Shown: positions 45,820 to 63,607, numbered from the stretch's first letter. The stretch is 64,000 nt of DNA from Chloroflexota bacterium (GCA_964291655.2 OZ219802.1:32001-96000), one strand, 5' to 3'. The notes: generated from the sequence alone by a model not told the origin. Numbers and translations are program-made.

Positions 45820-46226
45820 TAGCTGCCAAAGGACCAAAGTGCTGTTGCCAACACCATATGAAACCAGATTGGGATCGTCCGCTTGAGCCATCTCCTTTCC
45901 GGCTTGAGCTTCATCGTTAGAATATAGCGCGCCAACATTGCACCGAAGTAAACTACTGCGGCAGCCCTGAGGGGCGTCGCCAACATGCCCCACCAGCTCG
46001 AAGCAAAGAGACCCTCAGTCCGGTAGACGTCGGCAGCAATGACTGCCAGGAGCGAAAACAGAACTAGCTGCGCAGGGAGCAGGTAGCGGTAGGGCATCAA
46101 TCCCGAGTACCAGTGTTCCATCGCAGGCAACCAGCGAGGCGAGAACAAAACGACTACCACTTGTCCCAGCACTCGTAACCCAAACAAGACAGTACATACA
46201 AGGAGGATTAGAGGTGCCAGGGACAT
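45807..46226 (-). CDS. Hypothetical membrane protein
   Basis: Four hydrophobic segments, WYSG motif, GAGG RBS; 13-nt convergent overlap with the FMO gene. Confidence 0.6.
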   Translation of the reverse strand: MSLAPLILLVCTVLFGLRVLGQVVVVLFSPRWLPAMEHWYSGLMPYRYLLPAQLVLFSLLAVIAADVYRTEGLFASSWWGMLATPLRAAAVVYFGAMLARYILTMKLKPERRWLKRTIPIWFHMVLATALWSFGSYHSL

Positions 46227-46923
46227 GTCTTCAACCTCGTGCTAGTCGACGATGCGAGTTTCTCGGCCGGCTCTAACTCTTTAGGAATGAGAATCTACTG
46301 CAGCAATCTACTTGGTTGCCTATGCGGCACCCAGAAATAGGGCTGCAATTTCCGTTACCACGCCAATGCAATTTCAAACAGCTTCCATTCTATATGTTAG
46401 CTTGACATGGGCACTCCCAATTGGTAGGTTAATGGCCAGAAATCACAGTGATGATTCTACGATTTGGTGGTCTCTGGCTAATTGGTCGGCAGGCAATATT
46501 GTAGTATTATTGCACCCAAAGAACCGAGTGGTTACACAACTGGGGATAACTCGGATCTTGGGCAAGTGTTTTGTCCTCGCACTGCTTTGACATCTCCCTT
46601 CTTAAAAAAGAAGACGGGATGCACATTGACTGTGGGGAGAAGGTGAGGGAACCTAACAAGACTTTCATTGTAGTTTCCAGGGGGCAGTGGAGAGAAAGGA
46701 GCAGAGTGCTCGCGCAGACCGTTCGTCGAGAATGAGCCTGAGCAATTCATTGATCGTGTTACCTTGTGGCGAGAAATTCATCGGTTCCAGTTGGACGTGG
46801 ATTCGGTATGTTCCCGCCCTTGCTGTCATATGGTCACGTGCAGGATTTAGAGGTTGAGAACGACTTAGAGTTCAGGTATGGTGTTCAGCAAGACCAAGTT
46901 GCAATGTTAAGGAGATGCGCCCA

Positions 46924-47262
46924 ATGGGAGTAACTACGGAGCGGCAAGATAACACACTGATTGCAAAGACCGATGGTCGCATTGATGGGGCGAATGCCCG
47001 TGAATTCCAGGATGCCTTAGACGCCGCAATTGACTCGAGTGAGCGTGCCGTCGTCTTGGACCTGGAGGAAGTTTCGTATATCAGTAGTGCCGGCTTGCGA
47101 GTTATCCTCCTAACAGCCAAGTCGTTGCAGAAGCAAGACGCGAAGTTTGCCGTCTGCTCGCTCTCAGAATCAATTCGAGAGATATTCGAGATCAGCGGCT
47201 TTGATCAAATCATTGCCGTTCACGATTCTCGAGATGAAGCAATAGACGCACTCAAGAATTAA
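46924..47262 (+). CDS. STAS anti-sigma-factor antagonist (RsbV/SpoIIAA-like)
   Basis: GRID, VVLDLEEVSYISSAGLR with phosphorylatable Ser, IFEISGF. Confidence 0.93.
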   Translation: MGVTTERQDNTLIAKTDGRIDGANAREFQDALDAAIDSSERAVVLDLEEVSYISSAGLRVILLTAKSLQKQDAKFAVCSLSESIREIFEISGFDQIIAVHDSRDEAIDALKN

Positions 47263-47352
47263 CTCGCCCATTCTTGCGCAGCATCGAGAATTCAACTGGC
47301 CCGTGGGTACTCCCTACAGGGTCAGATAATGCAGTTCTCGAGGAAGGGAACG

Positions 47353-48513
47353 ATGGAACCACCTTACAAAATCCTCGTTGTCGATGATGAACCGGATCTT
47401 GAGCCTCTCATGCTGCAGCGAATGCGTCGCCACATTCGGGCGGGACGCTACTCGTTCGTCTTCGCTCAGAATGGAGTTGAAGCGCTTGAACGCCTGACCG
47501 AAGAGGATGACATTGATATGGTCCTCTCCGATATCAATATGCCTCGCATGGATGGCTTAACGCTGCTTGAACAGATTCCCAAGGTCGATCCCAACATCCG
47601 CTCCGTAATCGTTTCAGCATACGGAGACATGAAGAACATCCGCACGGCCATGAATCGTGGCGCTTTCGACTTTGTGACCAAACCGCTAGACTTTGCAGAC
47701 CTTCAAATTACAATCGATCGCACATTGAGTCATATGACTGAATGGCGAGAAGCACTCTCTTCGCGTGACAAACTGGTTGCATTGCAGAATGAACTGAATG
47801 TCGCCAGCCAGATCCAGCAGTCGATTTTGCCAACAATATTTCCTAAAGGCGAAAACTACAAAATCTATGCCAGCATGGAACCTGCGCGCAATGTTGGGGG
47901 AGACTTCTTTGACGTTTTGACTCTGGATGCCGGCATGGTTGGCCTTGCGATTGCGGACGTATCCGACAAAGGCGTACCCGCTGCCCTATTCATGATGTCT
48001 AGCCGCACGCTTCTGAAGGGCTCTGCCATCGGCATTGGAGAGCCGGGCCAGGTGCTGTGTGAGGTAAACGATTTGCTTCATGAAGACAATGACACGGGAA
48101 TGTTCGTCACTGTTCTGTATGCGGTCTATAGTCCGGCGAGTGGAGAACTAGCCTATGCCAACGGCGGGCACAATAGTCCTCTCATGGTTCATCCGGATGG
48201 GAGTTCATCGTTGCTTCCCCTTACTGGTGGCATTGCGCTTGGTGTTATGCCTGATTTGCCATACCAACAGCAGACTGTGACCCTGGCTCCAGGTGATCTT
48301 GCGTTCCTCTACACAGACGGTGTCACCGAGGCCATGAACGCCGAGGGAGAGGAATTTGGCGTGGAACGCCTGCAGGAAGTGTTTGCAACCAACCCTCCCC
48401 GGGATCCAGAAGAGGCGAACGAGGCGGTTTTCGCTGCGGTGAGTGAGTTTGCCGGCGAAACACCCCAGTCTGACGACATAACATGCTTAGCATTGTATCG
48501 TAGCGAGTCATAA
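47353..48513 (+). CDS. Response regulator receiver + PP2C/SpoIIE serine phosphatase
   Basis: REC: VVDDE, SDINMP, VTKP; PP2C: GGDFF, ADVSDKG, YTDGVTE, DDIT. Confidence 0.94.
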   Translation: MEPPYKILVVDDEPDLEPLMLQRMRRHIRAGRYSFVFAQNGVEALERLTEEDDIDMVLSDINMPRMDGLTLLEQIPKVDPNIRSVIVSAYGDMKNIRTAMNRGAFDFVTKPLDFADLQITIDRTLSHMTEWREALSSRDKLVALQNELNVASQIQQSILPTIFPKGENYKIYASMEPARNVGGDFFDVLTLDAGMVGLAIADVSDKGVPAALFMMSSRTLLKGSAIGIGEPGQVLCEVNDLLHEDNDTGMFVTVLYAVYSPASGELAYANGGHNSPLMVHPDGSSSLLPLTGGIALGVMPDLPYQQQTVTLAPGDLAFLYTDGVTEAMNAEGEEFGVERLQEVFATNPPRDPEEANEAVFAAVSEFAGETPQSDDITCLALYRSES

Positions 48514-48515
48514 AG

Positions 48516-48935
48516 TTGGGTAGCGAGCTGAATTTAAAGGTCGAGACCAGACGTGACGAACTAGACCGGGTCTCGACAGCAATAGAGAGCTTTGGCCTGG
48601 AAGCAGACTGGCCGATAGATCTCATATTCAAGGTGAACCTGGCCCTTGAAGAGCTCGTGATCAACGTCATGAATTATGGCCATGATGGTGGACTCCATGA
48701 GATCGATATCACCTTAACCTCCGATGAGGATTCCCTCACCATCGAAATTGTAGATGACGGCCGACCCTTTGATCCGTTGCATGACGCACCTAAACCCGAT
48801 GTGAACGCCGAACTAGAGGATAGAGACATAGGTGGTTTGGGCATTCATTTTGTACGCAAGATGATGGATGACGTGCGCTACCGTCGGGAAGAGGGAAAGA
48901 ACCACTTGACCCTGGTTACGAGCTTAGCAAAATGA
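48516..48935 (+). CDS. RsbW/SpoIIAB-like anti-sigma Ser/Thr kinase (GHKL)
   Basis: LALEELVINVMNYG, DDGRPFDP, GGLGIHFV. Confidence 0.92.
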   Translation: MGSELNLKVETRRDELDRVSTAIESFGLEADWPIDLIFKVNLALEELVINVMNYGHDGGLHEIDITLTSDEDSLTIEIVDDGRPFDPLHDAPKPDVNAELEDRDIGGLGIHFVRKMMDDVRYRREEGKNHLTLVTSLAK

Positions 48936-50212
48936 AAACCGTCTCCTGCATTCCTGCGGCCTCGTTGGTTCGCTTAGGAAACAGGGTGGCAGTTGGGTTT
49001 CTCTTAGCCACCCTTCTCATCGGTTGCTCCACTTCTGCTCAAGAAGGCGATTCGGTAGTTGCGGAAGCTTCGGCAACACCGGAGACAGTTACCGAAGATT
49101 CTCAGTCTCTTGCCCCTGGTGTCACGGAGGATCAAGTCCTCTTCGGGCAATCCGCAGCTTTCAGCGGCCCCGCGGAAGAGCTTGGCACAAACATGGAATT
49201 CGGCATTAGGGCCGCTTTCCATGAAGTCAACCAGAAGGGTGGCGTCCATGGACGGGAGCTCATGCTGCTCCAATTGGATGACGCCTACGAACCGGAAGCC
49301 GCGATTGAAAACACGAGAGAGCTCATTGAAGAGTACGGTGTTTTCGCACTCATTGGAGCCGTTGGCACGCCGACCTCCCGCTCCGCGGTGCCGGTTGCCT
49401 TCGAAGCAGGTGTGCCGTACATTGCCCCCTTCACCGGCGCCGAATTCCTGCGCAACTCTGACCTGTTCAATGTCGTAAACATGCGCGCCTCCTACTTTCA
49501 AGAGACCGAAGAAATGGTGGAGCGCCTGACGACGGACTTGGGTATCACCCGCATTGGTGTCTTGTACCAAGACGATTCCTATGGTCGGGCCGGCTACAAC
49601 GGCGTGCGGCGGGCTCTTGAAAAGCGCAACATGGAAATGGTGTCGATTGGGGTCTATGCGCGTAACACCACTGCAGTTAAGGCGGCATTGCTTGATCTCC
49701 GTCGCGGCGAACCTGAAGCGGTAATCATGATTGGCGCCTATAAGCCGGTCGCCGCCCTTATCCTCTGGGCGCGGCAAATAGGCTTAGACCCGGTGTTCAT
49801 GACCGTGTCCTTCGTGGGTAGCAATGCTCTGGCACAGGAGCTTGGACCAGCCGGGGAAGGCGTGTTCGTTACACAGGTGGTCCCGTTTCCCACGGATGAG
49901 AACCAGCAAATCGTCAAAGAGTATCGGCGTGCCATTCGGGAGTTTTCCGCGTGGCACGATCCCGGCTTTGTCTCTTTAGAGGGTTACCTCGCCGGCCGCT
50001 TGGCAATTGCCGGGCTTGAGCGCTGCGGGCCGCAGCCTACACGAGAGTGCTTCCTCGATAGCATTCGCAACACCGGCTTAATCGACCTTAGCGGTTTTGA
50101 GCTTAACTATGGAGCGGAAGATAACCAGGGTTCAGACGAAGTTTTTCTGACGATGATCGGACCAGATGGCACGTATCAGCCTATGAGTTCACTTCGGGAT
50201 TTGAACCGGTGA
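48932..50212 (+). CDS. Branched-chain amino acid/amide-type solute-binding lipoprotein
   Basis: Lipobox LLIGC, GQSAAFSGP, GGVHGR, DDAYEP, GAVGTPT, NMRASY. Confidence 0.88.
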   Translation: MKTVSCIPAASLVRLGNRVAVGFLLATLLIGCSTSAQEGDSVVAEASATPETVTEDSQSLAPGVTEDQVLFGQSAAFSGPAEELGTNMEFGIRAAFHEVNQKGGVHGRELMLLQLDDAYEPEAAIENTRELIEEYGVFALIGAVGTPTSRSAVPVAFEAGVPYIAPFTGAEFLRNSDLFNVVNMRASYFQETEEMVERLTTDLGITRIGVLYQDDSYGRAGYNGVRRALEKRNMEMVSIGVYARNTTAVKAALLDLRRGEPEAVIMIGAYKPVAALILWARQIGLDPVFMTVSFVGSNALAQELGPAGEGVFVTQVVPFPTDENQQIVKEYRRAIREFSAWHDPGFVSLEGYLAGRLAIAGLERCGPQPTRECFLDSIRNTGLIDLSGFELNYGAEDNQGSDEVFLTMIGPDGTYQPMSSLRDLNR

Positions 50213-52371
50213 TTGAGCAAATCAGGGGCTTGCTGGAAAGCCGCTACAGGATCTCAACACAGCTCTACTTGGGCATTGGCGGCGCAGTGGCGCTCGTCAT
50301 TGCGGCCAGTCTTGTCGGGTGGTTCTCCTTCAATCGCGTCGGTGAAGTCCAGAGCCGTGTGAACGAAGGCAGTGTCCCCGAAATGGAAGCTGCCTTTCGC
50401 GTGGCACAACACAGTAACTCATTAGAGGCCGCGGCCCCACGGCTGACGAGCGCCGCGACGCCGGAAGACTTCAACCGAGTCGCTGCCAGCATTGACGAAG
50501 CGCATGCCGCGCTGGAAGAGCAGTTGGCAATCCTGGAACAGGCCGACGCGGGAGATGAGCGCTTTGCGCGTGTTCGCGCCCGCGCGGATGCACTAATCTC
50601 CAACATAGGTGCAGTTGAAACCGGGATGTCGGAGTCGTTCCAGCTTAACGATCAGAGTGAGCAGTTGCGCGTAGAACTAGCGACCACGCGAGGCAATCTG
50701 GAAGACATTCTAACCCCCCTGATCGATGATCAGATTTTCTATCTCATCACAGGCTATAGCGTAATCGGAGGGTCTGCTGCGGCGCGGGAAAACCACTTTT
50801 CCGAGGAAGAATTCAATCGATATCGCCACTTAGAAATATTGAGCAGAGAAGCGAATGTCGCTACTGAGCTCTTGGCGAATTCTTATGTTGTTTCCGATGC
50901 TTCTTTTGTCGAGCCACTGCGAGAACGCTTCGAGTCGGCGCAGAGCCGGATCGAACGCAGCCTGTTCGCACTGGTGGATGCGCCGTTCTATGCAGAGCTA
51001 ACCCCAATCTTTGACGAGCTGTTTGCATTAGAGAGTGTATTCGCATTGCGCTCGCAGCAATTGCGGCTCATTCAGCACCAGGATGACCTATTGGCGAGCA
51101 ACAATGACTTGGCGAATGAGCTTCTGGGCGAGGTTGAGGGCCTCGTAAGTGCGGCCTCAGACAGCGTAGAGGAAGCAACACAGGCTTCTACGCAGGCTAT
51201 CCTGACCGGTCGGCTCCTCCTTCTTGCTATCGGTATTGTTAGTATTATCGGCGCACTCATAATTGTGTGGCTCTTCGTTGGTCGGGTCGTGGTGCGCCGC
51301 ATTGAGATGCTTTCGGATTGGATGCGTGGGATGGCAGGCGGCGATCTGGAAACGCAAGTGGAGATTGGGGGACGAGACGAAGTGGCGGAGATGGCTTCTG
51401 CCCTGGAGGTATTCCGCCGCCATGCCCTCGAAGTGCAGCGCCTTAATCTGGTTGAGAAACTCGCCGATGAACTACAGGGCAAGAACGATGAACTTGAGAG
51501 CGTTTTGGCGGACCTCCGCAAGGCGCAAGACCAGATCGTGATGCGCGAAAAGCTGGCAGCTCTGGGTGAACTGACCGCAGGCGTGGCCCATGAAATCAAG
51601 AACCCGCTTAATTTCGTCAAGAACTTCTCCGAATCTTCTGCAGACCTTCTCGAAGAACTACGAGAGGTGCTCGGTGAAAACGGCGGTGAATTGAGCGGAG
51701 ATGACCGCGATCTCATTGATGAGATATCGGATGATCTCACCGGAAACCTTGAGCGCATTCGTTCGCACGGGGAACGCGCCAACCGCATCGTTCACGATAT
51801 GCTATCCATGGGTCGCGGCACCGGTGGCATGCAACCCACAAATCTCAACAATCTGCTCGATGAGCACGCCCGGCTTGCCTATCACAGCAAGCGCGCCACC
51901 GATCCGGACTTCCAGTTGGACCTGAAGCAGGAATTGGACCCGGAGATGGGAGAGGTCGAGGTCGTTCCGCAGGACTTGGGCCGTGTCTTCTTGAATATGG
52001 TGAGCAACGCCTGTGATGCAACCGATGAGCGTCGGCGCGCTATTGAGCAGGCAGGCGGCAAAGACTATAGCCCGACAGTTTGGCTTGTTTCAAAGCGCGG
52101 CGAGGAATTCGCCGAATTTCGCATAAGGGACAATGGCGCCGGCATCCCGCCGGACGTGATTGAAAAAATCTTCAACCCATTCTTTACCACCAAGCCTACC
52201 GACAAAGGCACCGGCCTAGGGCTGGCCATGTCCAGTGATATCGTACGCCGCCGGGGCGGCACTATCCGAGTGCAGTCCGAACCCGGTGAGTTTACTGAGA
52301 TGACCATAGAGATACCCCTTGATCCCGTGGCAATTGAGGAAGACGCCGACGAAGCGGTAGTTCAGGCATAG
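50209..52371 (+). CDS. Membrane sensor histidine kinase (long helical sensor domain, HAMP)
   Basis: Two TMs flanking an about 290-aa helical domain, HAMP (DEVAEM), H-box AHEIKNP, N, DNGAG, FFTTK, GTGLG. Confidence 0.94.
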   Translation: MIEQIRGLLESRYRISTQLYLGIGGAVALVIAASLVGWFSFNRVGEVQSRVNEGSVPEMEAAFRVAQHSNSLEAAAPRLTSAATPEDFNRVAASIDEAHAALEEQLAILEQADAGDERFARVRARADALISNIGAVETGMSESFQLNDQSEQLRVELATTRGNLEDILTPLIDDQIFYLITGYSVIGGSAAARENHFSEEEFNRYRHLEILSREANVATELLANSYVVSDASFVEPLRERFESAQSRIERSLFALVDAPFYAELTPIFDELFALESVFALRSQQLRLIQHQDDLLASNNDLANELLGEVEGLVSAASDSVEEATQASTQAILTGRLLLLAIGIVSIIGALIIVWLFVGRVVVRRIEMLSDWMRGMAGGDLETQVEIGGRDEVAEMASALEVFRRHALEVQRLNLVEKLADELQGKNDELESVLADLRKAQDQIVMREKLAALGELTAGVAHEIKNPLNFVKNFSESSADLLEELREVLGENGGELSGDDRDLIDEISDDLTGNLERIRSHGERANRIVHDMLSMGRGTGGMQPTNLNNLLDEHARLAYHSKRATDPDFQLDLKQELDPEMGEVEVVPQDLGRVFLNMVSNACDATDERRRAIEQAGGKDYSPTVWLVSKRGEEFAEFRIRDNGAGIPPDVIEKIFNPFFTTKPTDKGTGLGLAMSSDIVRRRGGTIRVQSEPGEFTEMTIEIPLDPVAIEEDADEAVVQA

Positions 52372-52730
52372 GGTACACTAGGGACTTCCAGCAGTTGCAT
52401 AAGGAAGTTAGGCTGTAGGGTGCAATCTAGTCGGCAGGAATTGTGCTTCTACTTGGGCAACGCAGATTTCTGGAGTGAGGCACGTTCCGGAATGGTTTTC
52501 TGCGCCCGCAGACTCTTGGTGTACTGCGGGCATGCAGGATACCCCTCGCACAGGAGTGTGCAGAGTCTGTCTTGAATTTACTTGCGCAGTTTGGTACTGT
52601 GCTGGCGGGATTTAATTACGCGTTTCCCACTAAACGACAGGATTACCGCCAATTCAGATACTTGCCCGACGCTATGGTGTGTCCCAGATACGAGAAACGA
52701 GCGAAATGTGCCTGCTAAGCGAGTTATGCC

Positions 52731-54191
52731 GTGAACTTTGATGACTATCAGATTGACGCAGATGTCTACGATGAAATGTTCCTGCCTGACGGCACTCCCC
52801 GTAAACACAGCCGAGACCTTTACGAGATTCTTTGCCAGTTATCTTCCGAAGAGCTGGTTAGCATTCAGGATAGGGTAACACGCTCCTTCTCCAATGAAGG
52901 CATCACTTTCACGGTGTACGGCGACGACGAGGCTGATGAGCGCATAATTCCAATCGACTCTCTGCCCCGCATCCTCTCAAACACTGAGTGGCAGGGAATC
53001 GAAGCCGGTCTCAAGCAGCGAATCAAAGCGCTGAATATCTTCCTAGAGGATGTATACGGAGAGTCTCAAACCAAGAACCTCTATGGTGAGCCGCGCATCG
53101 TTCATGACGGTGTGATTCCCGTGGATATGGTGCGCGGATGCCCGCAATACCGGGTCGAGATGCGCGGGTTTTCGGCCCCCCACGGCACGTGGGTCGCAGT
53201 CTGCGGCACAGACTTGGTGCGCACCAGCGAGGGTTTCTGCGTGCTAGAGGATAACCTGCGCGTTCCCTCCGGTGTATCCTATATGCTGGCCAACCGCGAG
53301 GCGGTAAAGAAGAGCTTCCGCCGCCTGTATCGGCGCTCTCGCGTGCGAGAAATCGAGAACTACGGTCAGGTGCTCCAAACAACCCTACGGGAACTCGCGC
53401 CGGGCGGGCAATCCGACCCCACGATAGTCTTGCTGACTCCGGGTGTATATAATTCCGCCTTCTACGAGCACATCTTCTTGGCTCGCGAAATCGGCGCAGA
53501 GCTCGTGGAGGGCCGCGACCTGCTCGTCAACAACGGCTTTGTTTACATGCGCACTACCGCGGGGCTGCGGCGGGTAGACGTTGTTTACCGGCGTGTGGAC
53601 GACGACTTCCTGGACCCGTTGGTATTTCGCCCGGATTCGCTTCTCGGCGTGCCGGGACTTCTACACGCCTACAAACTTGGGAACGTCGCCCTGGTGAATG
53701 CGCCGGGCACGGGCGTTGCCGACGACAAGAGCATATACGCGTACGTGCCCGACATGATTCGCTACTACCTGGGAGAGGAACCGATCCTTGCCAACGTGGA
53801 GACGTTTCTCTGTCGGCGACGGGAGGACTTGGAATATACGCTTGACAATTTACAAGACCTAGTGGTAAAACGTGTCGGTGAATCCGGTGGCTACGGCATG
53901 CTGATTGGCCCCCACTCTACTCCTGAAGAGCGGGAGGAATTTGCTGAACAGTTGCGCGCGGACCCAGCCGGATTTATCTCACAGCCAGTTCTTGCGCTCT
54001 CGCGGTCGCCATGCTTCATCGAGGGAAACTTCGAGCCACGTCACGTGGACTTGCGTCCGTTTGTGCTGCATGGCCGCGAGACCCGCATTGTTCCCGGGGC
54101 GTTCTGCCGTGTCGCCTTGCGCCGCGGCAGCTTGGTAGTCAATTCTAGTCAAGGAGGAGGAGGCAAGGACTTCTGGGTGGTGGAAGACTGA
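52731..54191 (+). CDS. Circularly permuted type 2 ATP-grasp protein
   Basis: GITFTVY, VLEDNLRVPSGVSY, LTPGVYNSAFYEH, RVDVVYRRVDDDFLDP, GESGGYG, HVDLRP, VNSSQGGGGKD. Confidence 0.93.
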   Translation: MNFDDYQIDADVYDEMFLPDGTPRKHSRDLYEILCQLSSEELVSIQDRVTRSFSNEGITFTVYGDDEADERIIPIDSLPRILSNTEWQGIEAGLKQRIKALNIFLEDVYGESQTKNLYGEPRIVHDGVIPVDMVRGCPQYRVEMRGFSAPHGTWVAVCGTDLVRTSEGFCVLEDNLRVPSGVSYMLANREAVKKSFRRLYRRSRVREIENYGQVLQTTLRELAPGGQSDPTIVLLTPGVYNSAFYEHIFLAREIGAELVEGRDLLVNNGFVYMRTTAGLRRVDVVYRRVDDDFLDPLVFRPDSLLGVPGLLHAYKLGNVALVNAPGTGVADDKSIYAYVPDMIRYYLGEEPILANVETFLCRRREDLEYTLDNLQDLVVKRVGESGGYGMLIGPHSTPEEREEFAEQLRADPAGFISQPVLALSRSPCFIEGNFEPRHVDLRPFVLHGRETRIVPGAFCRVALRRGSLVVNSSQGGGGKDFWVVED

Positions 54192-54219
54192 TCATTGTAT
54201 CTCAAAGGAGAGAGGGTAC

Positions 54220-55617
54220 ATGGTATTCACGGACGTACTTGCACGTCATCGCCGTATCGCAGTAATTGCGGCAGTCTTGATCCTGACATTTCTCTATTTC
54301 TTGCTCCGACCGGCAGTTGCCCACGCAGCGACAGATAGCGAAACTACATTCGTCCTCAATACGTTTGCATTCCTAATCTGGGGTGTGTTGGTGATGTGGA
54401 TGGCTGCGGGCTTCACGATGCTTGAGGCCGGCGCGGTACGCACCAAGAACGCCTCCATGATTTGCCTAAAAAACATCGGTCTTTACTCCATCGCCGGGCT
54501 TGCTTACTTCTTCGTCGGCTACAACCTTATGTACGTCGACGTCGACGTCGAGCGGTTTGGGGGACTGGTAGGATCGTTTAGCTTACTCTATGGCCCATCA
54601 TCCGATGAGCTCGCCTTGCTGGATGGCGATCAAAGCGCTGCGGCGGCTGTGATAGAGAGCGGTTACTCGGTCATGTCGGACTGGTTCTTCCAGATGGTTT
54701 TCGTCGCGACCACCGCTTCCATCATTTCCGGCGCCTTGGCCGAGCGGGTTAGAATGTGGTCGTTCTTCCTCTTCATCCTTGTCCTCACAGCATTCATCTA
54801 CCCAGTGGTAGGCGCTTGGACATGGGGCGGCGGCTGGCTGGCTGATATGGGCTTCCAGGATTTTGCCGGCTCAACAATTGTACACAGCACTGGCGGCTGG
54901 GCGGCGCTTGCGGGCGTGATCATTGTCGGCCCCAGGCTTGGCAAGTATCGCAAGGACGGCACCGTTAGACCCACGCCACCTTCCAACGTGCTCCTCGTGA
55001 CGTTGGGCGTATTCATCCTGTGGTTAGGTTGGTTTGGATTTAATGGCGGCTCGCAACTGGCGCTGGGAAGCGCTATAGATGCAGTCGCGATAGGTCACGT
55101 GTTGGTGAATACTAACCTTGCCGCGGCAGGAGGCGTGATGGCCGCCCTGATAATTTCGCGGCCGCTCTTGGGCCGGACTGACCTCTTTGCCGGCTTGAAT
55201 GGCGCGATTGCCGGTCTCGTCTCAATTACGGCTGGACCCGACATTACGCAGCACTATTGGGCCGTCATCATCGGCGCTATCGGCGGCATCATCTGCACCC
55301 TCGCCATATTGTTGCTTGAGAAAGTCAAGCTGGACGATGTTGTCGGGGCAATTCCCGCCCACTTGTTCGCGGGCGTTTGGGGAACTCTGGCGGTTGCCAT
55401 TGCCGCCGGCGCCAATATCGGCGTGCAAGTTATCGGCATTCTTGCCATAGGCGCATTTGTTTTCATAGTCTCGCTGGTCCTCTGGAAAGTACTCGATGTG
55501 GTTCTCAGCTTGCGGGTTTCCGAGCAGGTCGAGCGCCTGGGTCAAGACACGGCAGAACTGGGATTAGAAGCCTATCCCGAGTTTGTACTCATGCCTGAAG
55601 AGCACGATGATGACTAG
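54220..55617 (+). CDS. amt: Ammonium transporter (Amt family)
   Basis: FFQMVF, SGALAER, DFAGSTIVH and DDVVGAIPAH (twin His), GWFGFNGGS; N-terminal signal-like segment ending AHA. Confidence 0.95.
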   Translation: MVFTDVLARHRRIAVIAAVLILTFLYFLLRPAVAHAATDSETTFVLNTFAFLIWGVLVMWMAAGFTMLEAGAVRTKNASMICLKNIGLYSIAGLAYFFVGYNLMYVDVDVERFGGLVGSFSLLYGPSSDELALLDGDQSAAAAVIESGYSVMSDWFFQMVFVATTASIISGALAERVRMWSFFLFILVLTAFIYPVVGAWTWGGGWLADMGFQDFAGSTIVHSTGGWAALAGVIIVGPRLGKYRKDGTVRPTPPSNVLLVTLGVFILWLGWFGFNGGSQLALGSAIDAVAIGHVLVNTNLAAAGGVMAALIISRPLLGRTDLFAGLNGAIAGLVSITAGPDITQHYWAVIIGAIGGIICTLAILLLEKVKLDDVVGAIPAHLFAGVWGTLAVAIAAGANIGVQVIGILAIGAFVFIVSLVLWKVLDVVLSLRVSEQVERLGQDTAELGLEAYPEFVLMPEEHDDD

Positions 55618-55645
55618 CGTATGCAGGAACTGAGAAACTAAACCA

Positions 55646-56611
55646 ATGCTCTCACGCAGCGCACAGGGCCTCTACTGGATGGGGCGGTATCTTGAGCGGG
55701 CGCAGCACCTCTGCCGCCTTCTGCAACTGCAGACGGCGGCTTTGGTGGACCGCCCCGTCCAGGAAATCTACTTTGGGTGGAGTCGTATTTACATAACTGT
55801 AAATCGGCTGCCGCCCGGCGGCAGCCTGGAATTCACCGATAGCGATGACTTCACGCTGGCAGACTCTTACACGCTGGCGGATGATCTCACCTTCGAGCGT
55901 TCCAATCCCGGCTCCGTCTGGAGTTGCTTTGCCATGGCGCGGGAAAACGCCCGTCAAACGCGCAATTGCGTGAGCGCGGAGATGTGGTCGCACTTGAACT
56001 TGGTCTACCTGCGGCTGCAAGATCGAGACATACAGGACATCTGGACCACATCCCCCGAGAGTTTCTACAGCCGGACCACCAACGAGATTGACACCTTCAT
56101 GGGTGTGGCCGCAGGCACCATGTATCGCGACGAAGGCTGGCACTTTCTGCAGCTTGGTCGCTTCATTGAACGCGCCCAACTCGCAGTCTCGTTGTTTCTG
56201 GCCCAACTCGCTTCTGAAGTCCACTTCGAAGAGTCATCCGAAGCGGACTGGGTTAGCTTGCTACGCGCCTACCATGCTTTGGAAGTCTATAACCGCAGTT
56301 ATAGCGTGGAAATGCAGCCGGGCCAGGTGTTGGATCTGCTTGTCACCGATCCGCTGCTACCTGATTCGTTGTGCCAGTCCCTCGATGTCTTGGGAGCCCA
56401 GCTAGACGCAATTGGCAAGGGTCCAAGTGCCGAATCCAGTGGCGCCACACGTCGGCTTGCCGGTCGCTTAGGATCGTTGATCCATTACGAATGGCCGGAC
56501 CAGGAAGACCGGAAGGAGACCTTGCAGGATTTGGGCGAGTTCTGCCGGGACCTTCACAGCCTCATTGTGCAAACGTATTTCGATTACCAAGTCGACGATT
56601 CCCCTGTCTAA
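55646..56611 (+). CDS. Alpha-E domain protein
   Basis: MLSR...LYWMGRYLERA, ARENAR, LGRFIERA (two ER motifs). Confidence 0.93.
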   Translation: MLSRSAQGLYWMGRYLERAQHLCRLLQLQTAALVDRPVQEIYFGWSRIYITVNRLPPGGSLEFTDSDDFTLADSYTLADDLTFERSNPGSVWSCFAMARENARQTRNCVSAEMWSHLNLVYLRLQDRDIQDIWTTSPESFYSRTTNEIDTFMGVAAGTMYRDEGWHFLQLGRFIERAQLAVSLFLAQLASEVHFEESSEADWVSLLRAYHALEVYNRSYSVEMQPGQVLDLLVTDPLLPDSLCQSLDVLGAQLDAIGKGPSAESSGATRRLAGRLGSLIHYEWPDQEDRKETLQDLGEFCRDLHSLIVQTYFDYQVDDSPV

Positions 56612-56618
56612 TGACGCC

Positions 56619-57560
56619 ATGGCCGGATCGAACCGCTTCGAGATCGCGCACACTTCTCATTACCGGTACTCGTCTCCGGCGCGGCACTCGGTGATGTCGC
56701 TCTGCCTGCAGCCGCGCAACAGCGTCAAGCAGCAACTCGTGCACTTCGATCTGACCACAGAGCCTGTTTCCCAATACAGTGTTGGGATTGATCCCTACGG
56801 GAACACGAAACACGTCTTTAGCGTGCATCAATGGCACGAGTCCCTTAAGATTACCGCCCGCGCCACAGTAGATATGGGTCCGGTCGTCCAGCTTCCTACC
56901 TTCTTGGACTCCGGAGCTTGGGACAAGATTCACGCGTGGCGCGACTCTTTCGCGCTCTGGGACTTTACGCACGATAGCCCGCTGGCGCAGTCATCGCCAG
57001 CCCTCACGGCCTTCATCCAGCGGGAGGGCATCAAGCCTGACGATGATCCCCTTCAGGCCCTGGGTTCACTATCTGAACAGTTGAATCGCGCTTTTGACTA
57101 CGTGCCCGGCAGCACGTCGGTTGCCTCACCCATCGAGCACATCTTGGAAACCGGCCGGGGCGTGTGTCAGGACTATGCCCACGTCATGATTGCCGTTGCG
57201 CGATCGTGGGGCGTGCCGTCGCGCTACGTCTCCGGCTACGTCCATGTAACAGGCGAAGGCCGCGAGCACGCGCCTACCCTCGCGCAGATGCAGAGCTCGT
57301 CGCAGACGCAGACTTCGTCAGATTCGCCGCAGACCGCCACCCACGCGTGGGTAGAGTGCCGCTTGCCCGGCCTCGGCTGGGTGGGATTCGATCCCACGAA
57401 TCAGACCCTGGCCGGCAACCATCACGTCTCTATCGCTATAGGACGTGACTATCAGGACGTGCCGCCGTCCAAAGGCGTCCTGCACGGCTTCGTTGAGAGT
57501 GACCTCGAGGTGGACGTCCGCATGCGCCTGCTGCCGCCAGCGCCGGCCGAAACGGTGTGA
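56619..57560 (+). CDS. Transglutaminase-like protein
   Basis: HTSHYRY N-domain, DPYGN; catalytic GVCQDYAH, HAWVE, FDPTN; GRDY. Confidence 0.93.
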   Translation: MAGSNRFEIAHTSHYRYSSPARHSVMSLCLQPRNSVKQQLVHFDLTTEPVSQYSVGIDPYGNTKHVFSVHQWHESLKITARATVDMGPVVQLPTFLDSGAWDKIHAWRDSFALWDFTHDSPLAQSSPALTAFIQREGIKPDDDPLQALGSLSEQLNRAFDYVPGSTSVASPIEHILETGRGVCQDYAHVMIAVARSWGVPSRYVSGYVHVTGEGREHAPTLAQMQSSSQTQTSSDSPQTATHAWVECRLPGLGWVGFDPTNQTLAGNHHVSIAIGRDYQDVPPSKGVLHGFVESDLEVDVRMRLLPPAPAETV

Positions 57561-57766
57561 CCGGCGGCGTCCCGCGCGCAGCAAGTCGCCGGAACCCGCG
57601 CGGTAGCATTCGCCAACCTCTGTTACCATCGAGATGTCGCTGACAGCGCACACGGTATCGCAAGCGTCAGGGCGAATGTAGATTCGTCCAAGTAAGCCGT
57701 TCTGCCGCGGACTACGCAGCAATTCAGTTTAGGGGCTGCTCGCTCATTCCATAGGAGAGTGCAACC

Positions 57767-57955
57767 ATGCGGAAAACACTGAAGAAGATCACCCACATCG
57801 CGCTCTTCTTGGTGGCAATCATTGTCTTTTATCTCGGACTAGGCATCGGCTTGACGGCGAATCCCACGCTCGGCACCGCCCTCTGGGTTGTCGCCATAGC
57901 CATCGCCGTCGCCAACCTGTATTGGATCCTCCGCGGACGGCTACGCCAGCAATAG
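57767..57955 (+). CDS. Small 2-TM membrane protein
   Basis: AGGAGA RBS; two hydrophobic helices in 62 aa. Confidence 0.6.
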   Translation: MRKTLKKITHIALFLVAIIVFYLGLGIGLTANPTLGTALWVVAIAIAVANLYWILRGRLRQQ

Positions 57956-58067
57956 CGCTGGTGCAATGGCATTGGCCCGAACCGAATGAATGTCCTCAGC
58001 CCTTTTCATGGGTTCGTTTCTGCGGATCGTTGTGCGCAGTGCTCGCTGAGAATGTAAAACTATCGCC

Positions 58068-61000
58068 ATGACCGGTCAACTCTTCACACAGTATTTTCTT
58101 ACCGAAGGCATCACCGCAACTGCCGCATGGGACGAGTCTTGTTCTGACCAGCAGGCCTATGACGCGTTCAAGCGGTCCCTGAGCAATATCCTGAGCAGCA
58201 TAGTCTCCCAGAACAATCCCAACGAATCGGTCACCGAGCAAGAGGTCGTTCGGCCGATTCTGAAGTTGCTCGGTTGGCGCGAATACTTACCGCAACAGGG
58301 CGCTGACAGCAATTTGATCATCCCCGATCACCTGCTGTTTACGGATGGCGAGGCAAAGAGCAGGGCAATGGCGCGGGCCAACTCTACTGATGGTTTCCAA
58401 GACGCCTTGGCGATTGAGGAGAGCAAGCGGTTCGGCCTGCCGCTAGACAACCGCGATCAGACCGACACCAGGCAGATAGGCACTCCCCACGGCCAGATTT
58501 TGCGGTATCTGGCGGAAGCGGAGCCGGTCTCCGACGGACGCTTGCGCTGGGGCATCCTAACCAACGGCGCCGTTTGGCGCCTCTATGATTACCGTTCTCG
58601 TCCCCGCGCTACAGCCTTCTACGAAGCAGATCTGCAAACCATTCTGGGCAGCAAAGACGACCATGCTCTGCGCGCCTTCTACTTGCTCTTCAGGCGGGAT
58701 TCTTTCGTTCCGCAAGCGGGAGCCGCTACGACTTTTCTCGAGCACGCCATCGCGGAAGGCAAGCGTTACGAGCAACAGGTGGCCGCGGACCTTTCCGAGG
58801 TAGTGTTCGAGCGCGTCTTTCCTACCTTGGTCAGCGCTCTTGCGGGTGGTTCCACTTTGGATGAGGACGTGAGCGAAGACTTCGCTGGTCCCCGGCACGC
58901 GGCTCTCATCTTTCTCTACCGGCTGCTCTTCATTCTCTACGCCGAGGACCGCGGCCTCCTGCCGGTCCACGACTCCCGTTACGACGACTACGGGCTGCGC
59001 AAGCGCGTGCGCGACGACGTCGCCAAGCGCATGCAGGATGGAGATGCCTTCTCCAGCATGGCAAAGAACTACTACGACCGTTTGGTCACGCTGTTCACGT
59101 TGATTGACGCCGGCGATCCCTCCATCGGCCTCCCGCCCTACAACGGCGGTCTCTTTGCCTCTGATGCTGCGCCGCTGTTGCAGCAGGTCCGCTTGGCGGA
59201 TGCGGTCGTGGCGCCCATAATCTATGACCTGAGCCACACCCGCAGCACGCGCAGGGACGAGACCGGGCGTTCATTCGTCAATTACCGCGACATGTCCGTG
59301 CAGCAGCTTGGCTCGATTTACGAGCGGCTGCTGGAGCAGGAACCGGTGCGCGGGGCTGACGGCGCCATCACCACGCGGCCTAATCCCTACGCCCGCAAGG
59401 ATAGCGGCAGCTTCTACACGCCTCAGGAGCTTGTGGACCTCATCGTTGAGAAGACGGTAGAACCTCTGGTGGAGGAACGCCTCGCGGCATTCGAAGAGAA
59501 GGCCGGTAAGCTCAAGAGCGATCGCCGTTCGAAGGCGGAGCGACGACAGGAATTGGCGGCGCTCGACCCGGCGGAGGCCGTGCTCGACCTGAAAATTCTC
59601 GATCCTGCCATGGGCAGCGGCCACTTCCTGGTCACGGCCGTGGACTTCCTCGCCGACTACATCGCCGACTTGGTCGAATACGTGCCCGGCGTGCCGGACT
59701 GGCTCGCAGGTGTCGGCGATGTTTACGTTTCGCCATTGTTGGCACGCATCGCCCACATCCGGCAAGAGATCTTGGAGCGGGCGCGTGAGTCTCATTGGAC
59801 CATTGACGCGGCCCAGCTCACCGACCAGGCTTATCATCCGGCGCATGGTGCTGAAGCGCTGCATCTACGGCGTGGACAAGAATCCCTTGGCCGTGGAGCT
59901 GGCCAAGGTCTCGCTCTGGCTCCATAGCTTCACCGTCGGCGCGCCGCTCTCGTTCCTGGACCACCACCTGCGTTGCGGCGACTCGCTGCTGGGCATGCGT
60001 GTGACGGAGGCCGTTGACGAACTGAATCGACTGGGCGGCTTGGCCGCATGGTCAGCTATGACAGGCGCGGAGAATGCCGCCGCGGGCATGCAGCGCATCG
60101 AGTCCCTTTCTGATGCCGACGTGGCCGAGGTGCGGGAGTCCGCGGCGCTCTTTCAGGGCGTGGAAGAGACCACCGCCGAACTCCGCGGCCTGCTTGACAT
60201 ACTCTGCGGCATGCGCTGGCTGACGGCGGGCTTGAAGAAAAGCGAGCGCACGCTCTTCGAAGCGCCGCTATTCGAGATGCTCGGTCAGCGGCCCAATGAC
60301 GCTTTCAAACTCCTATCCCACGGGCCGGAAGTCCGTCATACCGGCGGCGGCGCTCCCATCCGTCATTCCGGCGCACCTATCCGTCATTCCGGCGAAAGCC
60401 GGAATCCATCCTCATCCGCGTCTTCCGGTAGCGCAGGTTCGCAACCTGCGTCCGACGAGGGCAGAGAATCGGCGGACGATGCGGGCGGGCATGGTTCCGC
60501 GCTACGCCACCATTCCCGCGCAAGCGCCTCGCTCCGTCATTCCCGCGAAAGCGGGAATCCATCTTCCTCCGAATCCGTGGACTCGCCTGCCAGCGGGAAC
60601 CCATCTTCCCCGCCTAAGATGGACTCCCGTTTTCACGGGAGTGACGACCAAGAGTCTGCCGCGCCATCCTCCGGTAGCGCAGGTTCGCACGAGATGTGCG
60701 CGCAACCTGCGTCCGCCGCCGCATCCTCTGGTAGCGCAGGTTTGCAACCTGCGTCCGAAGAGGGCAAGGACCCGGCAACCGACACAATTGGAGAAACCCT
60801 CACCCAAGAATTCGCAACCCTCTGGCATCGCGCCAAGACCATCGCCGACCGGGAGACCTTCCTGCACTGGGAGGTGGCGTTTCCGGGGGTGTGGCAAAAG
60901 TGGCAAGACGCGCATCCGGCCGGCGGTTTCGACGCCGTGATCGGCAATCCGCCCTGGGACCAGATCGAGCAACTTGAGAAGGAGTGGTTTGAATATCGAG

Positions 61001-62577
61001 ATGTCGAGATAAGGCAGGCAAGAACTGGATCGCAAAGGAAGGCATTAATTCACAGGAAAAGAACGGAAGGCGACAGTATAGCCATCCAGTACAACCTAGT
61101 CCGAGAGCATGCAAAGTCCATGCGACAGTTTGTACGTTCGTCTGGCAATTATCCCCTACTAAGTGGAGGTCGCATTAATTTCTATTCGCTCTTCGTGGAG
61201 CGCGCCCTGCACCTCGTGAATGCTAACGGCCTGGTTGGCCTGCTCACCCCCTCCGGCATCTATGCCGACAAGACCGCGGCCAAGTTCTTCAAGTCCGTTT
61301 CCACCCGTGGGCACGTGGCCGGGCTGTACGACTTTGAGAACAGAAAGATTTTCTTCAAGGAAGTGCACGCCTCGTTCAAATTCTGTGCCCTCATCGTTGG
61401 CGGCAAGGCACGGCAGTTCGACGAGACCGCGTGCGCATTCTTCCTCCACGACACCAAGACTACAGAGGACCCCGACCGCTGTTTCCCACTCGCGCCTGAT
61501 GACTTCGCCCGCGTCAATCCCAACACCGGCACCGCCCCGGTCTTCCGCACCCGCCGCGACGCCGACATCACCCGCGCCGTCTACGCCCGCCACCCCGTGC
61601 TCGTTGACCACTCCGACGGCACCGAGCAGAAGACTTGGCCGGTGCGATATATGCAGGGGCTTTTCAACATGACCTCAGACTCCCACCTATTCCGTACCGC
61701 CGCGCAACTAGACGAAGAAGGCTTCTACCCCGTCCAAGGCAACCGCTGGAAGAAGGGGGATGCGGACTACTCGCCGCTCTATCAAGGTCGAATGATTCAA
61801 AAATATGACCACCGCTTTAATTCTGTTCGATTCAATCCAGAGAGCACAATCAATCCCTACCTAAGCGAGGAAGTTACAGAGCTTCAGCATGTTGATCCAG
61901 AATTCCTGCCTAGAACCCAGTATTGGGTACCGGAGCAGGAAGTAAGGGCCAAATTGCCCGGCAAGTCTGGATGGACGATCGCCTATCGTCGTTCTTCCCG
62001 ATCCACTGACGTCAATACAATGATCGCAACAGTCTTACCCTCTATCGGAGTCGGAGATAGCGTATTCCTTCTGAATCCTGAGAGTGGACTGACTGCGGCT
62101 GACGGATGTATTCTTGTCGCCAATCTCAACAGCTTTGTGCTCGACTATGTTACCCGCCAGAAGATTCAGGGCACAAATCTCAGTTGGTTTATTGTCGAGC
62201 AACTCCCCGTGATCGCCCCCGCCGGCTACGACCGCAAATTCGGGGATACCACCGCCCGCGCTCTCGTCCGCGACCACGTGTTGAAACTCACCTACACCGC
62301 CCACGACCTGGCGCCGTTCGCCCGTGACCTCGGCTACAGCGGTCCGCCCTTCATCTGGAACGAAGAAGAGCGCCGCCACCTCCGCGCCCGCCTCGACGCC
62401 TGCTACTTCCACCTCTACGGCATCTCCCGCGACGACGCCGCCTACATCCTCAGCACCTTCCCCATCGTCCAACGCCAAGACCAAGCCGCGTTCGGTACCT
62501 ACCGCACCCAAAACCTCATCCTCGCCTACATGAGCGCCCTCCAAGCCGGCGATACAACAATCATCGTTGATCTCTAG
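58068..62577 (+). pseudogene. Type IIG (Eco57I-like) fused restriction endonuclease / N6-adenine methyltransferase, split by a +1 frameshift near 59831
   Basis: PD...EESK nuclease motif, ILTNG..WRLY, YNGGLF, LGSIYE, SGSFYTP, LDPAMGSGHF (motif I) in ORF 58068-59927; IYGVDKNP, IGNPPW (motif IV) and C-terminal region in ORF 59710-62577; span 4510 nt = 3n+1. Confidence 0.88.
60331..60790. repeat. Cluster of REP-like palindromes inside the R-M coding sequence
   Basis: CGTCATTCCGGCGAAAGCCGGAATCCA (60382-60408), CGTCATTCCCGCGAAAGCGGGAATCCA (60535-60561), inverted copy TGGACTCCCGTTTTCACGGGAGTGACG (60620-60646), and GGTAGCGCAGGTT(C/T)GCAACCTGCG (60427-60450, interrupted copy near 60673-60711, 60730-60753). 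Confidence 0.85.
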
Positions 62578-62752
62578 GTTCTGTGAAAATTTGCAGTATA
62601 CTGTATATATGTCAACGGTGACCCTATCTTCCAAACAATAGTCGCACATCTACGCGTTTCTTTGCAGCCAGCCGGATGTGTTCAAAAGTGGAACTTCGTG
62701 ACCAAGTAGACGATGGGATCTGTTCTGTGTGCGCTCAAAATCAGGCATTACA

Positions 62753-63607
62753 ATGTCGCTAAACAAGAAAGACGTATGGGCGGACCTAAGGTATGCCCTC
62801 GATGAACTGGAAAGACCGTCGCGCGATATTCATAGCCGCTTGACTGATGCAGCAAACTTAGATGCACAATCTGACGATGAATTTCACAAGAGACTCCTTC
62901 AGATTGGACTACTCTCCACAGCATACTTTAAGGCTAGAGCAAGGGCGGAGACGAGGAATGCTCACGAAGCAATCGAGAAGGGCCTAAAGGCGATTCTGAT
63001 AGACGGCGGCCTGTCACAGGAACACGTTCGTTCTCGCGGGCACGAACTACACCGACTGCTAGCGGACATTCAACAACACAACCCAACGGCATTCAATGAA
63101 CTAGAGCGATGTTTTGAAAGCACCATCCAGTATCTGGAGAGCGTCACAACCCTCCAGCACAACACAAACATTGTTGACTATTTCCAAGAATTTGGTAAAG
63201 CCGAAATCTTTGTAGCAAATAGGTACACGAGTATCGAGGGTAATAGCGACAAGTACGGAATGATTGGCTGTGTCTATCGTGAGATTATACGTGCTCTATT
63301 GTCGCTTATATTTGGCTGGACCCCCAAAGACATAGGCTCCCGCATCGAGGAAGAGGCAAGGAAGGCAATACTGTCCGAGAGCAAACTTGATCCGGCGTGG
63401 GACGCAACGGAATGGTTAAAGCAGGGACCTGTTCGGCCACGACTAGAAGTCATCGCAAACCTAGACAATAATAGAGTGCTTCTTGCTGCGGTGCGAAGGT
63501 GTGCAAGAGAGCCTAAGGATAGCGCGATTCAGCTTTGGGCTCAGACGCTAAGGCACAATCGCATCATTGAAAAAAGAAAGGCGCGAGCTGAGCACCCGGT
63601 TGGGTAG
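62753..63607 (+). CDS. HEPN-like domain protein
   Basis: HEAIEKGLKAIL...GHELHRLL...NRY resembles the HEPN pattern AEKxLKA...HDL...RY; AT-richer than flanks. Confidence 0.6.
   Translation: MSLNKKDVWADLRYALDELERPSRDIHSRLTDAANLDAQSDDEFHKRLLQIGLLSTAYFKARARAETRNAHEAIEKGLKAILIDGGLSQEHVRSRGHELHRLLADIQQHNPTAFNELERCFESTIQYLESVTTLQHNTNIVDYFQEFGKAEIFVANRYTSIEGNSDKYGMIGCVYREIIRALLSLIFGWTPKDIGSRIEEEARKAILSESKLDPAWDATEWLKQGPVRPRLEVIANLDNNRVLLAAVRRCAREPKDSAIQLWAQTLRHNRIIEKRKARAEHPVG

Follow-up and report, generated by a model that had tools for sequence, protein, structure and literature searches.

We analysed a stretch of 64,000 nucleotides (nt) from a Chloroflexota bacterium (GCA_964291655.2 OZ219802.1:32001-96000), called the window below, which is read on one strand, 5' to 3', and numbered from its first letter. 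Positions 52,731 to 57,560 carry four genes, for a circularly permuted ATP-grasp amidoligase (CP-ATP-grasp), an ammonium transporter (Amt), an alpha-E protein and a transglutaminase-like cysteine hydrolase. The operon type formed by the ATP-grasp, alpha-E and transglutaminase-like families (the triad) is already known; its linkage with Amt is confirmed here, is strongly conserved and offers a helpful entry point to an orphan enzyme system. Together with a sensor cassette encoded upstream, the four genes probably form a nitrogen-limitation module independent of PII, in which the sole Amt of the genome would be co-expressed with the triad as one transcription unit.

The four-gene operon and its genome

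The genes of the operon are as follows.

52731..54191, + strand: CP-ATP-grasp (circularly permuted ATP-grasp amidoligase); GTG start; Pfam PF14403 and PF04174; PDB 3N6X at E 1.2e-163
54220..55617, + strand: Amt of the TIGR03644 'marine', AMT1-like clade (Pfam, NCBIfam); acidic tail YPEFVLMPEEHDDD
55646..56611, + strand: alpha-E, all-helical; Pfam PF04168 at 228 bits; AlphaFold2 (AF2) model with pLDDT 88.9
56619..57560, + strand: transglutaminase-like cysteine hydrolase; in-frame ATG at 56619; Pfam and alignment to 3ISR

All four lie on one strand, with gaps of 28 nt (ATP-grasp/Amt), 28 nt (Amt/alpha-E) and 7 nt (alpha-E/transglutaminase-like), so that the order and spacing given in the first-pass annotation of this DNA agree with the open reading frames (ORFs) and their coordinates. 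The triad families keep their usual relative order, and Amt is intercalated between them. In Pfam, the ATP-grasp protein matches CP_ATPgrasp_2 at 514.5 bits, and 3N6X, a structure of this family, was deposited as a 'putative glutathionylspermidine synthase'. The transglutaminase-like protein matches Bact_transglu_N (66.3 bits) and Transglut_core (79.8 bits), and its alignment to 3ISR finds the Cys, His and Asp all kept, in GVCQDYAH, HAWVE and FDPTN. For the alpha-E AF2 model, Foldseek against PDB gave no match at E 0.001 or better, and VIA-align reached a Z of at most 10.3, against designed bundles and helical membrane subunits; for helical proteins such a value falls short of the meaningful level, so the fold points to no function.

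The genome is a 3.47-Mb assembly of two contigs and 97.55% complete. In a genome-wide profile search its sole PF00909 match is the operon Amt; alpha-E is present in one copy, and glutamine synthetase is encoded. A PF00543 match occurs nowhere in the genome, so no PII gene adjoins Amt, in agreement with both the missing glnK/PII neighbour and the 'PII-independent' control proposed earlier. Scanned ORFs flanking 26 loci of the Amt clade, a crude choice of ORFs, contained no PII either. The earlier remark that no Anbu or other peptidase gene follows the operon also stands: a 62-aa ORF and then methylase ORFs lie downstream, and the genome has no match to PF00227, the proteasome/Anbu/HslV fold.

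Linkage of Amt and the triad across phyla

Within Chloroflexota, gene coordinates place Amt directly against alpha-E in all 16 same-genus genomes, in 6 of 6 g5 genomes and in 3 of 3 g8 genomes; the two do not abut in any of the four g4 genomes. For the phylum, 401 evenly drawn genomes were searched for alpha-E homologues (E 1e-20 or better), and the places found were compared with those of TIGR03644; two genomes flagged as unpublished (G199 and G293) enter the Chloroflexota tallies only. A window-type alpha-E homologue is present in 99 of the 401 genomes, and Amt is directly adjacent to it in 19, namely 11 g1 genomes (window genome included) and 8 g8 genomes, the latter being every g8 genome that has alpha-E (8 of 8). 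Seven of nine g10 genomes have Amt upstream of alpha-E on the same strand, at a distance of 1.8-5.3 kb, and the other two have the genes on separate contigs. All 18 f16 genomes with both places listed have Amt and alpha-E either on separate contigs or separated by over 1 Mb.

In fetched regions, the order ATP-grasp, Amt, alpha-E, transglutaminase-like is seen in g1, g5 and g8, and the order Amt, ATP-grasp, alpha-E, transglutaminase-like in g10. The spacer between Amt and ATP-grasp is 332 nt in one g10 genome (G354). Two others carry a thiamine pyrophosphate-dependent enzyme gene at this point (G037, L093 8529-10217; G179, L095 9416-12299), in G179 with an additional HEPN/RES toxin-like gene, indicating that the spacer between Amt and the triad tolerates insertions.

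Outside the phylum, a scan of one genome per species with the Amt alignment returned 80 loci, around which the triad was sought within 6 kb by tblastn with the window proteins. Amts of 65-76% identity come from metagenome-assembled genomes (MAGs) labelled Dehalococcoidia, Acidimicrobiia, Gemmatimonadota, Nitrospirales, Nitrospinota, Binatia, Vicinamibacterales, Alphaproteobacteria and Gammaproteobacteria. The triad was found in 4 of the 80 loci: a Dehalococcoidia MAG (ATP-grasp, Amt, alpha-E), two Gemmatimonadota (Amt, ATP-grasp, alpha-E, transglutaminase-like) and one Vicinamibacterales (ATP-grasp, alpha-E, Amt). By tblastn, the Dehalococcoidia and Vicinamibacterales loci (L004 and L022) have no transglutaminase-like gene within 6 kb; in its place stand an AMP-binding enzyme (L004 8436-10193) and a LOG/'lysine decarboxylase'-family gene (L022 7265-7933), respectively.

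In Gemmatimonadota, this Amt clade occurs in 28 of 201 sampled genomes, and in 23 of these 28 carriers the ATP-grasp gene lies directly downstream of Amt on the same strand. Alpha-E is present in 30 of the 201: 24 genomes have both genes and six have alpha-E only, while four more have Amt only. The six alpha-E-only genomes carry a different, higher-scoring alpha-E type, and the Amt-type alpha-E is restricted to genomes with this Amt (24 of 24). Compared with the window proteins, identity is 32-35% for alpha-E, 41-44% for the transglutaminase-like protein and 66-72% for Amt.

In Acidobacteriota, 16 close Amt copies were found in 12 of 251 sampled genomes. Five stand in the exact window order, one follows alpha-E, five lie beside a STAS gene without the triad and five are alone within 1.5 kb. 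At the loci labelled INS, ATP-grasp is 77-78% and alpha-E 62-64% identical to the window proteins. A quick maximum-likelihood tree of Amt was built from 90 rows with five more distant Amts as outgroup, leaving out two duplicates (L113 and L138, of L013 and L022) and matches below 60% identity or spanning 350 query residues or fewer (L130, L132). The Gemmatimonadota copies in the Amt-first order form one clade (SH-aLRT 99), and the Acidobacteriota copies in window order nest within the Chloroflexota clade. Four Acidobacteriota genomes (G711, G771, G793 and G823; L133-L136 and L145-L148) have two Amts each, one embedded in the triad and one after a STAS gene. The two copies of a genome fall nearly together in the tree (end branches about 0.003), three of the four as supported pairs, which suggests gene conversion or very recent duplication.

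As judged from gene order and protein identity, the link exists in at least three architectures and three phyla, and joins one Amt clade to two deeply diverged triad lineages. Conservation among relatives and in two further phyla puts the arrangement far beyond chance. The census of Amt beside the triad proposed in the first-pass annotation thus finds the arrangement in other genomes as well; uniqueness to this genome, which had been named there as speaking against the idea, is not what is seen, because the linkage is conserved across three phyla.

Hitch-hiking of Amt, inserted once into an ancestral triad operon and retained by inertia with no shared function or regulation, would fit the many close Amt relatives that stand alone, and the order within one class could be plain inheritance. 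We consider it very improbable, given three different orders in three phyla, the 23 of 28 linkage in Gemmatimonadota, gaps in the window too short for separate promoters, and independent literature, in the passages cited below, that ties the triad to nitrogen limitation.

The Amt protein and the upstream sensor cassette

The Amt protein has 465 aa, and Ammonium_transp is its only Pfam match (333.7 bits; cut-off 23.2). NCBIfam assigns it to TIGR03644, 'probable ammonium transporter, marine subtype' (537.9 bits; cut-off 514). Alignment to Sd-Amt1 finds the twin histidines H222 and H381, as claimed from the sequence earlier, together with the Phe gate (F161, F274), vestibule Ser278, W202 and D214, and these pore and vestibule residues are invariant or nearly so in two further alignments. 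W202 and D214 presumably correspond to W148 and D160 of the E. coli protein. By these residues, the predicted conduction path is intact.

Whether the protein transports or senses ammonium has to be weighed, because among solved structures two ammonium receptors match it best, Sd-Amt1 at E 2.6e-67 and Ks-Amt5 at 3.4e-57; the assimilatory Af-Amt1 follows at 1.7e-44 and AmtB of E. coli at about 1e-26. Amt might then act mainly as a transceptor, reporting external ammonium to the triad or to a partner switch and not serving as an assimilatory transporter. Fusions to MCP, histidine-kinase or PAS-SpoIIE modules are frequent among representatives at 41-47% identity; Phe65 (Sd-F25), Lys84 and the exit Asn in LNG (Sd-N269) agree with the receptors as described in passages of PMC11152129; and STAS or RsbW genes stand directly beside Amt in triad-less proteobacterial and acidobacterial loci. 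However, the ammonium receptor (AmR; Pfluger et al. 2024) signature at N1/N2, given in the same source as Q-X6-E-X15-N-X2-D-F/T-X54-60-T-X2-S/T, reads A62, E69, N85, L88, Y89, S (for T) and S in the window protein, so that the N2 aspartate is absent, and there is no fused cytoplasmic transducer module. Uptake would also have no other carrier, this being the sole Amt of the genome, and the same broad cluster includes plant AMT1 proteins that are transporters, according to passages of PMC11152129. Because the receptor signature is lacking, we treat the protein as a probable transporter of the AMT1-like group, and regard a transceptor role as an unlikely, minority reading.

The C-terminal tail, YPEFVLMPE followed by acidic residues, is found in all 28 clade members (at least 65% identity, among the 80 loci). 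Since 24 of these 28 loci have no triad within 6 kb, the acidic tail is not an operon-specific docking feature. For the same reason, extension or modification of the tail by the ATP-grasp enzyme, in the style of RimK on S6, was tried as an idea and found unsupported.

Directly upstream of the operon lies the sensor cassette, which the first-pass annotation had overlooked, followed by two elements that precede the ATP-grasp gene.

46915..47262, + strand: STAS-domain protein of the anti-sigma-antagonist type with serine motif YISSAGLR, first cassette gene; Pfam STAS 82.2 bits
47329..48513, + strand: receiver-PP2C (SpoIIE) phosphatase; Pfam Response_reg 86.4 bits, SpoIIE 182.6 bits
48516..48935, + strand: RsbW-like serine kinase / anti-sigma-type protein; HATPase_c_2 95.5 bits, weak NCBIfam RsbW and SpoIIAB matches
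48932..50212, + strand: periplasmic binding protein, Peripla_BP_6, LivJ/UrtA-like; Pfam 190 bits
50209..52371, + strand: histidine kinase with TorS-like periplasmic sensor, HAMP, HisKA and HATPase_c; Pfam, and TIGR02956 at 185.8 bits, under the cut-off
52468..52492, + strand: terminator-like hairpin after the kinase gene; pattern scan, consensus match only
52572..52600, + strand: putative promoter-like block TTGAAT-N17-TACTGT; read from the sequence and not among the pattern-scan matches

A partner-switch set is therefore encoded together, comprising a STAS protein with conserved serine (S57 and S58 are invariant in 14 sequences), a HATPase_c_2 kinase and a PP2C phosphatase. Domain scans of 46915-57560 showed no sigma factor gene, and no genome-wide search for one was made. 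The promoter-like block is kept upstream of the ATP-grasp gene in two congeners (G003 and G015), and the hairpin and the block, as predicted elements, set the four-gene operon apart from the cassette. A sigma-54-like match, TGGTACTGTGCTGGC at 52592, overlaps the conserved sigma-70-like block; it was rejected, because G003 does not keep the GC element and a search of the genome gave no Sigma54_DBD match.

Other genera of the class, and a single genome from a different class, conserve the cassette as one unit with protein identities of 47-97%. It stands ahead of the full four-gene operon in G003, G015, G338 and G023; in G408 and G307 it is followed by a triad lacking Amt, and in G126, the genome from a different class, by Amt lacking the triad. 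In the fetched regions of g5, g10 and g4 it is not near the locus. Among the 80 loci, cassette partner-switch components occur near Amt in six. Three proteobacterial MAGs have STAS directly after Amt, one of them (L017) also with an RsbW-like gene before Amt, and the triad-bearing loci of Gemmatimonadota and Vicinamibacterales carry partner-switch genes too. A predicted complex of Amt residues 37-465 with the STAS protein scored 0.09 and 0.06, which speaks neither for binding nor against it.

Since the cassette elsewhere adjoins either the triad alone or Amt alone, both look like cassette outputs, and for this reason shared regulation is favoured over an obligatory Amt-triad machine. The latter has two forms: ammonia delivered by Amt could be the amine substrate with which ATP-grasp amidates a carboxylate of alpha-E or a peptide, or the triad could gate Amt from the cytoplasmic face in place of GlnK, and in either form the hydrolase would reverse the modification. 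Such direct coupling gains appeal from the joining of this one Amt clade to two very different triad lineages, as the Gemmatimonadota identities indicate, and from the retention of the link in three gene orders. It also suits the Acidobacteriota INS loci, where a nested Amt comes with similar ATP-grasp and alpha-E, the Gemmatimonadota alpha-E that occurs only with this Amt, and a genome without PII. A ligase with a cysteine amidase also recalls the glutathionylspermidine synthetase/amidase, and the deposit name of 3N6X points the same way. It is weakened, however, because either partner stands alone with the cassette (G408 and G307; G126) and the acidic tail is not specific to the operon. Nor was a credible Amt-triad fusion seen in the homologue lists examined. 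One candidate, P0061, is a 655-aa protein predicted on a metagenome contig, in which the C-terminal half of an ATP-grasp continues in frame into Amt; it departs from the ATP-grasp end just past the QGGGG motif and continues through the spacer, so it looks like frameshift read-through or a gene-call artefact and was rejected. P0123, P0134 and P0136 contain Amt domains only. On balance, direct coupling is possible and rather doubtful.

Four congeners (G003, G004, G005 and G007) have a second, AmtB-like Amt and a divergent PII-like gene next to the STAS end of the cassette, on its upstream side (for G003, L096 3484-4251). A second Amt occupies the same position in G408 (L084 18394-19161), and the window genome lacks the pair seen in the four congeners.

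A candidate nitrogen-limitation module and known systems

In the shared-regulation reading, which we prefer, the cassette would sense a periplasmic nitrogen compound and switch on both outputs, Amt and the triad. Amt would take up scarce NH4+ and would recapture leaked NH3, the latter being a known role of E. coli AmtB. The triad would combine an ATP-dependent amide-forming ligase with a papain-like amide hydrolase and turn over amide nitrogen on alpha-E or on peptides; such an amide-forming and amide-cleaving pair is suggested by a ligase of the 3N6X family together with a papain-like hydrolase. Ammonium might be either the substrate of the triad (capture) or its product, and in the latter case leaked NH3 would be recaptured by Amt.

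Several observations weigh against this reading. Most close Amt relatives are not beside the triad (76 of the 80 scanned loci, and 10 of the 16 Acidobacteriota copies), so the link is dispensable, and in f4 Amt and alpha-E are unlinked in 8 of 8 genomes. The counts in favour overstate independent events, because related genomes are not independent samples. Co-expression in this organism is a prediction, as no RNA run is listed for it. The genome has no Sigma54_DBD match, so that proteobacterial NtrC/sigma-54 control is not simply transferable, and an Rfam search at E up to 1 over 45000-59000 gave 0 matches, hence no glutamine riboswitch. At the gathering threshold, 11 marine proteobacterial Amt loci likewise gave 0 Rfam matches.

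The triad itself has been tied to nitrogen limitation by published work, of which the relevant passages are cited here. Induction of the triad under nitrogen limitation is stated in PMC3235984 (note added in proof), PMC5666114 and PMC5491218, and in Pseudomonas putida the triad ranks with the most strongly induced genes. PMC5666114 and PMC6376114 repeat the statement of PMC3235984 and, in the same passages, stress that the function of the triad is not known. In a B. cenocepacia ntrC mutant, I35_5080-83 (DUF404/407, DUF403, transglutaminase) are down 6- to 9.4-fold (PMC5491218); by published work, the Burkholderia triad is NtrC- and sigma-54-dependent. A sigma-54 site is predicted before a CP_ATPgrasp_1 gene of Bradyrhizobium (PMC13207237), and across marine metagenomes the domains of the triad vary together with those of urea metabolism (PMC3597751). 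With the linkage in three phyla and at least three orders, these passages bear out the earlier suggestion that the triad is tied to ammonium or nitrogen. The particular mechanisms suggested with it, namely amidation or Glu/Gln tagging of alpha-E, nitrogen storage and reversal by the transglutaminase-like enzyme, gained no support here and stay speculative. A full-text literature search found no published description of the Amt-triad linkage.

The closest known system is the COG2308-COG2307-COG1305 'Anbu operon' (Valas & Bourne 2008, PMC3235984), which by the passages used has the same three families in the same relative order, and in which the Anbu peptidase is optional. Its tie to nitrogen limitation is documented in Proteobacteria, and the hydrolase Cys, His and Asp are present in the window protein. 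The window differs in having Amt between ATP-grasp and alpha-E, in a genome where neither an Anbu/proteasome fold nor sigma-54 was found, and in having a partner-switch and two-component cassette upstream instead of NtrC control. Iyer and colleagues reportedly treated the CP-ATP-grasp / alpha-E / transglutaminase system as well, in 2009.

The window operon also resembles the amtB-glnK operon, in that Amt is predicted to be co-transcribed with cytoplasmic proteins in a context of nitrogen limitation. In contrast to that operon, the genome has no PII match, and the Amt is AMT1-like (TIGR03644) and distant from E. coli AmtB. With Sd-Amt1 and Ks-Amt5, as described in passages of PMC11152129 and PMC5764959, the window Amt shares the twin His, the Phe gate, the Phe at Sd-F25, the Glu at Sd-E29 and the exit Asn, whereas it has no fused transducer and departs from the signature at four points (A for Q, L for D, Y for F/T, S for T).

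Partner switches of a comparable type are HsbR-HsbA of P. aeruginosa and RsbK-RsbY-RsbV-RsbW of B. cereus. The cassette is like them in having a receiver-PP2C protein, a STAS protein with phosphorylatable serine and a HATPase_c_2 kinase in one row. Unlike them, it is coupled to a binding protein and a TorS-like kinase, has no sigma factor gene in the cluster, and has Amt and the triad as neighbours.

The triad is widespread and induced by nitrogen limitation in P. putida, yet it has stood without an assigned substrate or product since 2008-2009. Its conserved cross-phylum link to one Amt clade, where the genomes lack PII, focuses the search on ammonium as substrate, product or signal, and the compact four-gene cassettes are units that can be expressed and assayed. 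The sensor cassette is in turn a candidate replacement for PII/NtrBC control of ammonium uptake. A wider and more speculative proposal, which we put forward only tentatively, is that the triad handles ammonium in direct cooperation with a dedicated Amt clade: ammonia brought in by Amt would be fixed by the ligase as amide on alpha-E or a peptide, or the ligase would gate Amt in place of GlnK; the hydrolase would free the nitrogen; and the STAS partner switch would replace PII signalling in lineages losing PII. If true, this would give the enzymes of the 'Anbu operon' a substrate and add a second, PII-independent control of ammonium uptake.

As to the origin of the window, a 99%-identical database protein carries the label 'Chloroflexota bacterium', and among named loci those of Dehalococcoidia MAGs come closest. 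Fractions of 0.35-0.44 of the sampled words are present in three DNA runs with the label 'sponge metagenome', from which we draw no habitat claim.

Downstream of the transglutaminase-like gene lies one further small ORF.

57767..57955, + strand: 62-aa hydrophobic ORF; membership of the operon uncertain

By tblastn it has 77% identity to a match in L096 and 61% in L097, the two congener loci examined, and beyond these and the window locus itself (L002) no other stored locus gave a credible match. It is followed at 58068-62577 by two overlapping ORFs (619 and 955 aa) of methylase type, MmeI/BREX-like, with weak matches to MmeI-helicase-spacer, N6_Mtase, Eco57I and BREX PglX-like models, which possibly represent a single methyltransferase of type IIG or BREX-like kind, split or frameshifted. 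The next ORF, at 62729-63607, has a weak HEPN match.

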